The notes below the pieces were generated by a model that was not told where the DNA came from, did not search any database, and worked only from the letters and a program-made list of their open reading frames with translations. From a phage, in the sequence record PZ091942.1: a stretch of DNA of 64,000 nt. One strand, written 5' to 3'. Every line of letters begins with the position of its first letter. Position 1 is the first letter of the stretch. Positions 13,226-13,910 of this stretch are shown piece after piece. Both the position numbers and the translations under genes were made by a program.

Positions 13226-13669
13226 ATGGCTAAATCTAAAATCAGCATGAAAGGCGGGCGTGTGTTCTCTATGAGTGAGCTGGAAAAAGAAAAGCCAGCC
13301 GCTACTAACCACATTAGCAAACGTAGCCTTAAACGTAGAGCTATCAAACAAGCCGCTCAAGAACATAAACCCTCTACCGTAGCAAAGGTGTTAGGGCGTC
13401 GTGTTCATCGTGCTGATGCGCTTCTTAAAGCTGATCATAGCCGTTCACTGTTAACTAACGGTGCAGCGAAAACAGAAGAAGAGAAACGTTTAGAAATTTA
13501 TTGCAACGGTCGCACTAAGGGTAAGCAGAAGAATAAAGGTAGCACTAAGCCACCGAAAGCTTTCCCTACTACTAGCCAATGTGCACCGGATGTTTTCTAC
13601 GCTGATAGCCAGCACAAATGGGGAGTCGAAAAATACATTGACCCCATCAAGGAAGCGAGAGTAAAGTAA
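13226..13669 (+). CDS. hypothetical basic protein
   Basis: ORF track; AAAGGAA SD; K/R-rich. Confidence 0.6.
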   Translation: MAKSKISMKGGRVFSMSELEKEKPAATNHISKRSLKRRAIKQAAQEHKPSTVAKVLGRRVHRADALLKADHSRSLLTNGAAKTEEEKRLEIYCNGRTKGKQKNKGSTKPPKAFPTTSQCAPDVFYADSQHKWGVEKYIDPIKEARVK

Positions 13670-13910
13670 GCCTCTTCTCTGTACCAGTAGTCAACTACTA
13701 TGACGCTCTTCTTGAGCGTCTTTGTGTCTGCCGCCTTTGTGCGGCTTTTTGCGTAACTAGTGATGCCTAAAGGGAACTCCCTTTGTGAATCATTGGCATG
13801 GTTCAATCCCTATTGGATGGTCATTTGACCGGGCCTTTAACGAGGCCGCTTTTTTAAGAGTCTTTGCGAGGATTCTTAAATGAGTGAGGTCATGTTCACT
13901 CTTTCAGGTC

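Follow-up and report, generated by a model that had tools for sequence, protein, structure and literature searches.

Site-specific single-strand nicks in phage genomes, e.g., in T5, phiKMV and the tf/LUZ24 group, have been known for decades and, to our knowledge, still await an identified function. Coliphages T5 and BF23 and the phiKMV-like phages carry such nicks, with the consensus CGACxxxxxCCTA/CTCCGG in the phiKMV-like group (PMC3517423). For phage tf of Pseudomonas putida, 14 ligatable single-strand nicks with the consensus 5'-TACT/RTGMC-3' were described (Glukhov et al. 2012, PMC3517423), the main form being TACTGTGAC in tf and TACTATGAC in LUZ24, PaP3 and MR299-2 (PMC3517423). Nanopore data of Pseudomonas phage Rembedalsseter, of the LUZ24-like group, placed nicks at WACTRTGAC (Dougherty et al. 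2025, PMC11780129); in the only systematic survey, 61 related Pseudomonas phages made up the sole cluster with enrichment of TACTRTGAC (PMC11780129). Here, we analysed a phage DNA stretch of 64,000 nucleotides (nt) from sequence record PZ091942.1, referred to as the window at its full length, and describe a gene-end element that occurs in its early region in two copies, at 13661-13735 and 19994-20060, and whose conserved core is an exact match to this nick consensus. A preliminary description of the window had interpreted both copies as a reused 3'-end cassette with a terminator-like hairpin. The reading that we favour, and to which we would give about an even chance, is that the copies represent paralogous recognition sites, probably nicking sites, at recombination-prone module boundaries, termination at copy 1 being secondary.

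The + strand of the window is the direction of the early genes, and the element consists of the following features, listed together with a third copy of the core:

13661-13735, + strand: copy 1, in which the end of a basic open reading frame (ORF) of 147 amino acids (aa), with its stop codon at 13667-13669, leads through a pyrimidine tract to the motif and hairpin 1
13694-13705, + strand: core motif of copy 1, ACTACTATGACG, agreeing with the clade consensus (see below) at 12 of 12 positions; TACTATGAC lies at 13696-13704
13702-13720, + strand: hairpin 1, GACGCTC-TTCTT-GAGCGTC, with TTTGTGTCT following it and a 5' arm that overlaps the motif
13730-13750, + strand: hairpin 2, GCCGCC-TTTGTG-CGGC followed by TTTTT, with the stem at 13730-13745; outside the repeat
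19994-20060, + strand: copy 2, running from the end of a basic 38-aa ORF (homologue of phi32_94, stop codon 20003-20005) over a pyrimidine tract (20006-20025) and the motif to a weak stem
20028-20039, + strand: core motif of copy 2, GCTACTATGACG, agreeing with the clade consensus at 11 of 12 positions; TACTATGAC lies at 20030-20038
20038-20054, + strand: degenerate hairpin CGCC-(9 nt)-GGCG, -5.2 kcal/mol, followed by TGTTTTGG
55709-55720, - strand: third copy of the core, ACTACTGTGACG, 12 of 12 positions, with the 9-nt core at 55710-55718, on the sense strand inside a 1472-aa ORF (53177-57595, homologue of phi32_26)

Re-reading of the sequence gave the letters of both copies, AGTAAAGTAAGCCTCTTCTCT...CTACTATGACGCTCTTCTTGAGCGTCTTTGTGTCT for copy 1 and AGTAAATAAGCCCTCTTCTCT...CTACTATGACGCCTCTCTTTTCGGCGCTGTTTTGG for copy 2, as well as the hairpin of copy 1, just as they had been reported. 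Each copy also begins, as described, within the last codons of a small basic ORF, namely 13226-13669 (147 aa, isoelectric point (pI) 10.2; homologue of SU7_109 and phi32_120) and 19889-20005 (38 aa, pI 9.9), and the distance from the stop codon to the motif copy is 23-26 nt on the sense strand in both cases. Downstream of the stem of copy 2, a GGAG at 20062-20065 precedes the ATG of the next gene at 20074.

Exact matches to TACTRTGMC occur in the window at 13696-13704 (+), 20030-20038 (+) and 55710-55718 (-), and the agreement with the nicked phages extends to the adjoining letters: the tf genome has G at +10 in 12 of its 14 sites and T at -1 in none of them, and in the window, +10 is G and -1 is C at all three sites. 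The copies in Salmonella phage 7-11, Proteus phage P59 and ECO319P1, a Grimontviridae relative of these two, yielded a consensus of 12 nt, ACTACTRTGACG; of 22 copies, 20 have A at -2, 20 have C at -1 and 18 have G at +10. The extended consensus of the 7-11 and P59 copies is ACTACTGTGACG. A scan of the window with ACTACTRTGACG, allowing one mismatch at most, returned three matches (13694, 20028 and, on the - strand, 55709), two of them perfect, at an expectation of 0.46, and none of 100 shuffles reached this number. To judge by its letters, the conserved core very probably belongs to the nick-associated motif family of tf/LUZ24 and the 7-11 clade.

The window itself is that of a Suseptimavirus/Kuravirus-type (phiEco32-like) Escherichia coli podophage. 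In megablast searches with both regions, 93-99 phage records were found, all of them phiEco32-like podophages of E. coli and Shigella with C3 morphotype (Gordonclarkvirinae: Suseptimavirus, Kuravirus), the nearest being Bas88, TH34, TH43 and ECBP2 at 94-97% identity. For comparison, we used the early-region loci (15-17 kb) of 12 relatives, eight of the Suseptimavirus type and four of Kuravirus, together with the whole genome of phiEco32. In each of them, TACTRTGMC has exactly two early-region matches within about 15 kb, both at the orthologous sites (site 1 and site 2, corresponding to copies 1 and 2) and on the early sense strand. Since the site alignment was anchored on this pattern, its fixed positions are invariant by construction; what does not follow from the construction is that a match is retained at both sites in 14 of 14 genomes while the flanks diverge, that the M position is A in every case and that the next base, at +10, is always G. 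The core common to every genome is (A)CTACTRTGACG. Its R position switches between A and G even where the flanks are nearly identical, as in phiEco32 versus pEC-N1203. A strict co-variation of the -1 base (C versus G) over the three sites of a genome was also considered and rejected, as this base is C at site 1 but G at site 2 in Bas89.

The surroundings of the core proved to be highly exchangeable. Site 1 occurs in at least four flank contexts, i.e., the Suseptimavirus type, 4E8/Bas89, phiEco32/pEC-N1203 and WFI101126 with an extra ORF that ends at the motif, and site 2 in three. Site 2 of 4E8 matches copy 1 of the window at 50 of 57 positions with a score of 28.5, in comparison to 21-22.5 against any site-2 sequence, and sequence has thus been exchanged between the two positions. 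Conservation at both sites, the multiple flank contexts and the exchange in 4E8 together show the two copies to be true paralogues. Gene content differs at site 1 by the extra ORF before the motif in WFI101126, by phi32_119 and phi32_118 after it in phiEco32 and by two small ORFs after it in pEC-N1203. At site 2, a gene for a basic protein of 137 aa (20074-20487, +) follows in the window and in eight Suseptimavirus-type relatives; Kuravirus has a perfect 24-nt palindrome, GCGTAGAGGGAATTCCCTCTACGC, in place of this gene, and a remnant of the palindrome, GGGAAATTCCCC, is present within the first codons of the 137-aa gene. At site 1 of Kuravirus, about 30-45 nt past the motif, we further noted CCCTCTCCCCATTTGAAGC, of which the part CCCCATTT resembles a sigma-32-type -10 element; no matching -35 element was seen there.

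The third copy lies in what is a large virion-protein gene. It is found at orthologous codons in phiEco32 and is retained in five IMG/VR relatives, one of which shares 60% amino-acid identity and has substitutions and indels next to it; the surrounding coding stretch is hypervariable and rich in indels, and the synonymous positions of the site itself are unchanged over three lineages. As 12 kb of late genes are not part of the window, ECBP2 was used for this portion. No further motif copy was found in these 12 kb of ECBP2, so that a complete genome of this type has three.

In the related phages tf, 7-11 and P59, the motif is strongly enriched on one strand. Counts of TACTRTGMC per strand were compared with expectation, with sets of 100 third-order Markov simulations and by Poisson P:

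Phage tf: 14/0 on the two strands, about 0.3-0.7 expected per strand, reached in 0/100 simulations, P 1e-14
Salmonella phage 7-11: 1/12, about 0.7-1.5 expected per strand, 0/100, P 4e-8
Proteus phage P59: 1/7, about 0.6-1.4 expected per strand, 0/100, P 3e-4
phiEco32: 1/2, about 0.6-1.3 expected per strand, count reached in 26/100
ECO319P1: 1/0, about 1.2 expected, not enriched

Most copies in 7-11 and P59 are intragenic, which makes the motif independent of terminators. Several 7-11 copies are located at gene junctions, where the RTG of the motif forms the start codon, as in tf; the tf sites sci1, 2, 4 and 11 are likewise at gene junctions. Two tf sites are antisense to the local genes, and so is the one minority-orientation copy of 7-11. 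In the literature searched, we found no paper describing the motif in 7-11-like, Privateer-like or phiEco32-like phages. As a candidate for the nickase, we considered the PD-(D/E)xK endonuclease tf_46/7-11 gp029, which is present in tf, 7-11 and P59. It was undetectable in the window and in phiEco32 by tblastn and hidden Markov model searches, and its distribution also fails as a pattern, because the enzyme is a member of the T7 endonuclease I family, which is widespread, and is found in ECO319P1 with its single motif copy as well.

Altogether, 17 ORFs of the window match tf, and 14 of these represent distinct genes in colinear order, including the COOH-NH2 ligase, amidoligase, GATase, ATP-grasp protein, primase/helicase (47%), 3'-5' exonuclease, polymerase, 5'-3' exonuclease, scaffold, portal and TerL; a core of replication, amidoligase and structural genes is common to tf, 7-11, P59 and phiEco32. 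Outside the Escherichia relatives, the best match of the DNA polymerase is that of a Proteus phage (47%), and the next full-length matches come from 45-kb Pseudomonas podophages including Vicosavirus NV1 of the LUZ24-like group (about 41%, E 1e-120 to 1e-126); T7-like polymerases match far more weakly. By these genes, the window phage and the nicked Pseudomonas phages come from related lineages. As an observation aside, the polymerase ORF of the window (43588-45435) is unbroken and encodes 615 aa, and in ECBP2 (39257-41708) a homing-endonuclease gene lies beside or within the DNA polymerase region, where the tblastn match falls into two pieces over about 2.45 kb.

The preliminary description had assigned a terminator-like hairpin to both copies, which is borne out for copy 1 and doubtful for copy 2. 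Hairpin 1 has a 7-bp stem with five GC pairs and the tail TTTGTGTCT; its calculated energy is about -12.5 to -13.8 kcal/mol, and a terminator scan accepts it; the corresponding stretch of site 1 is annotated as a terminator in SU7, as is the motif hairpin of site 2 in 4E8. In copy 2 of the window, the scan gave no terminator call on the + strand, the stem has merely 4 bp with a 9-nt loop (-5.2 kcal/mol), and the region folds no better than its shuffles (z = +0.2). Hairpin 2, mostly outside the coordinates reported for copy 1, is kept in Suseptimavirus and Kuravirus and is a more canonical intrinsic terminator than hairpin 1. In most site variants, GACGC(Y) of the motif forms a stem with (R)GCGTC further downstream, closing a pyrimidine-rich loop (-5 to -14 kcal/mol), and the sixth pair of this stem differs in a compensatory manner, being T-A in site 1 but C-G in site 2. 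Site 1 of 4E8 and Bas89 has no such stem. A T-run past the hairpin is limited to some lineages, and most Kuravirus versions lack it. Because the hairpin is absent or reduced at some sites, the T-run is limited to certain lineages and the third copy is in coding DNA, the core would not be a terminator; termination is plausible at site 1 and doubtful at site 2 of the window phage, and the alignments do not support it as a conserved property of the repeat. Aside from this, four terminator-like hairpins stand in a row in the 320-nt gap after the 147-aa ORF, starting at 13702, 13730, 13832 and 13911 (+, spanning 13702-13930), a cluster that is unusually dense for an early operon.

Several other signals were considered at the two copies. 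Tiny ORFs starting from the ATG or GTG of the motif (MTLFLSVF... in copy 1, MTPLFSALF... in copy 2) lack a Shine-Dalgarno sequence, and indels of 1 and 2 nt in NC-B, SU7 and IME267 break their frame after about eight codons. A sigma-70 promoter with TACTAT as its -10 element was rejected, as there is no -35 element, no TG extension and no scan call; in the intergenic part of either copy no promoter was called at all, the only nearby call (13638-13667) lying in the ORF end. The consensus tAATGTAtA of the middle and late promoters served by gp36, the phage sigma factor of phiEco32 (PMC4331800, PMC4281155), is absent from both copies. A lambda boxA-like CGCTCTT in copy 1 is kept neither in copy 2 nor in the relatives, and a search of Rfam at E<=5 returned no family at either site.

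Within the window alone, the similarity of the two copies is borderline. A sensitive self-blastn of the window did not report the pair at E<=10, and the pair is not among the 20 largest repeat families of the window because the copies differ by indels. In a gap-lenient Smith-Waterman search, copy 2 was the top match of copy 1 window-wide with a score of 26, the runner-up reaching 18; set against the top scores of 160 random queries of 130 nt, this ranks at about the 99th percentile (about 1% reach 25, maximum 27), so that reading all against all would turn up a few such pairs by chance. Exact occurrences of the 12-mer CTACTATGACGC in the window are confined to the two copies; by simple counting, about 120 pairs of exact 12-mer repeats are expected in 64 kb. 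For this reason, the decision was taken from the comparison with relatives, and the relatedness claimed for the two stretches, for which self-alignment of the window gives borderline support, is borne out there. The strongest direct repeat of the window is a different one, at 15814-15860 and 20996-21038 (+; 87% over 47 nt, E = 9e-9, 94% in a 34-nt core). It reads TATAGCCCT-TGTG..TATC-AGAGGGCTATGTGAG, forms a hairpin straight after the stops of ORFs 15510-15818 and 20749-21000, and is probably what the preliminary description listed as its first duplicated gene-end element. Elsewhere in the early region, three tandem, paralogue-like small ORFs (17012-17590, +; 61, 54 and 69 aa) have a common N-terminal MIKW(L/F)KR(V/L)FH.H(D/E)W and a C-terminal C(K/R).CG/CL motif of the CxxC type, with 80% DNA likeness between 17206-17254 and 17035-17082, and a tRNA-Arg(TCT) gene present in all relatives lies mid-region at 17927-18002 (+).

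Taken as recognition sites, the modules would be built round a strand-specific DNA motif of 10-12 nt, (A)C-TACT-R-TGAC-G. Most likely, a phage-encoded, sequence-specific endonuclease would recognise this motif and nick the sense (non-template) strand, the nicks predicted by analogy with tf being at 13699/13700 and 20033/20034 (+, i.e., between T13699 and A13700 and between T20033 and A20034) and at 55715/55714 (-). Nicked or protein-bound sites at gene ends might favour recombination, which would account for the boundaries of gene gain and loss at both sites as well as for the exchange of site sequence. The hairpin GACGC(Y)...(R)GCGTC overlapping the motif would be an add-on specific to the phiEco32-like lineage; together with the next hairpin, that of copy 1 would probably attenuate or terminate early transcription, the one of copy 2 presumably being too weak. 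We consider it somewhat less than evenly probable that nicks are actually made in this lineage. More tentative still is the broader proposal that Gordonclarkvirinae coliphages carry a fixed set of three nicks at ACTACT/RTGACG, of which the early-region pair marks recombination-prone gene-swap boundaries, as part of one ancient system shared with LUZ24-like, 7-11 and Privateer-like phages. Regarding the modular reuse of 3'-end cassettes claimed before, exchangeable modules are supported by the swap in 4E8 and by gene gain and loss at both sites, and a terminator as the conserved part is not; we would rather attribute the reuse to the recognition or nick motif.

A number of points speak against this reading. 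The literature searched contained no report of nicks in phiEco32-like phages. Counted by the 9-nt consensus, the three copies of phiEco32 do not exceed chance, as the simulations above indicate, and the window likewise has three matches versus 1.94 expected, with 32 of 100 shuffles reaching three. The three copies are split into two on the + and one on the - strand, unlike in tf; all of them are on the sense strand, which would also fit a role at the RNA level. The single copy of ECO319P1, where the motif is effectively lost, shows the system to be patchy, and it could have been lost in the lineage of the window. Moreover, GACGC of the motif is at the same time the 5' arm of the hairpin, and the compensatory T-A/C-G difference suggests that the hairpin itself is under selection.

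Among the alternatives, a reused 3'-end cassette ranks first, i.e., an intrinsic terminator or attenuator or a 3' stabilising hairpin in which the motif is kept only as hairpin flank and arm. It would fit the position of both copies shortly past a stop codon on the sense strand, the good energy and T-rich tail of hairpin 1, the terminator annotations in SU7 (site 1) and 4E8 (site 2) and the compensatory sixth pair. Nevertheless, we judge it unlikely, as TACTRT lies outside the stem and is kept at both sites in all 14 genomes, including 4E8 and Bas89, where site 1 has no hairpin; the 4-bp stem of copy 2 folds no better than shuffles, most Kuravirus versions have no T-run, and the motif is conserved within a gene in the window and mostly intragenic in 7-11 and P59. 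Slightly less probable is a relic, in which the nick motif was inherited from an ancestor shared with 7-11-like and LUZ24-like phages, the nickase was lost, and the copies persist via the hairpin at sites 1 and 2 and via coding at site 3. Three copies as compared to 8-14 in tf, 7-11 and P59, the patchy distribution with one copy in ECO319P1 and the overlap of each surviving copy with another constrained feature are all in line with such a loss. Neither hairpin nor coding, however, explains why TACTRT is kept in intergenic DNA with repeatedly replaced flanks, or why the synonymous positions of site 3 are unchanged in three lineages.

An RNA-level signal on the sense strand, e.g., one at which an endoribonuclease processes the transcript or a phage RNA-binding protein attaches and shapes early mRNA, would agree with three copies that are all sense-strand though located on different DNA strands, and with two intergenic copies adjoining a hairpin. 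We regard this as improbable: the tf motif is a DNA nick site by direct experiment, with two sites antisense to local genes, the minority-orientation copy of 7-11 is antisense as well, three of three copies on the sense strand have a chance of about one in four, and no Rfam family matched. The last option, a chance resemblance of two pyrimidine-rich intergenic stretches with no common origin or function, might draw on the borderline statistics within the window and on the number of exact 12-mer pairs expected there, but it is effectively refuted by the comparative data, namely the orthologous conservation in 14 genomes, the cross-site exchange and the enrichment of the 12-nt consensus, and we consider it highly improbable. 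Recognition, and probably nicking, sites at module boundaries remain the reading that we prefer.

The motif at fixed places in phiEco32-like coliphages, its one-strand enrichment in 7-11 and P59 and the common gene backbone of these phages are shown here. If nicks were confirmed, the question of their function would move to genetically tractable enterobacterial hosts, and the long-enigmatic phage nicks would gain an E. coli/Salmonella model together with a testable function. The layout of three sites, two of them at gene-exchange boundaries, could serve as a simple system for nick function, and the nickase might come to light if relatives rich and poor in the motif were compared in their gene content. 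Caution is advisable in annotation, as gene-end "terminators" such as those in SU7 and 4E8 may be another element.

In comparison to known systems, the element is closest to the nicks of the tf/LUZ24-like phages (Krylovvirus, Bruynoghevirus, Vicosavirus), with which it has in common the identical core including the degenerate R, the preference for G at +10, the avoidance of T at -1, the location on the early sense strand, the placement of several tf sites at gene junctions and the colinear backbone of replication, amidoligase and structural genes. In contrast to these, the lineage of the window has three copies in 77 kb, as against 8-14 in 45 kb, and carries them on both DNA strands, whereas 7-11 (12/13) and P59 (7/8) show a one-strand bias like tf. 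Two window copies are, moreover, joined to a pyrimidine tract and a hairpin of the form GACGC...GCGTC, E. coli rather than Pseudomonas is the host, and the nicks, physically mapped in the virion DNA of tf, are predicted ones in the window. The nicks of T5, BF23 and the phiKMV-like phages share the concept of site-specific one-strand nicks at short motifs in podo- or siphophage virion DNA, but their motifs and lineages are unrelated, without sequence similarity to the window element.

Intrinsic terminators resemble copy 1 in its GC-rich 7-bp stem and T-rich tract, and orthologues were called as such by prediction programs; they differ in that the universally kept part is located upstream of the stem and partly in it, that copy 2 fails the scan and that the motif is also found in coding DNA. 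The PeSL (promoter-early stem-loop) cassettes of T4-type phages, mobile regulatory elements reportedly described by Arbiol et al. in 2010, are said to combine a terminator-like stem-loop with a sigma-70 early promoter in many copies, for which modular shuffling was proposed. As short, repeated intergenic stem-loop cassettes between small early genes, at boundaries of gene gain and loss, they resemble the 3'-end cassette discussed above; the window copies, in contrast, have no detectable promoter, number two in intergenic DNA and are centred on a different, nick-associated core.

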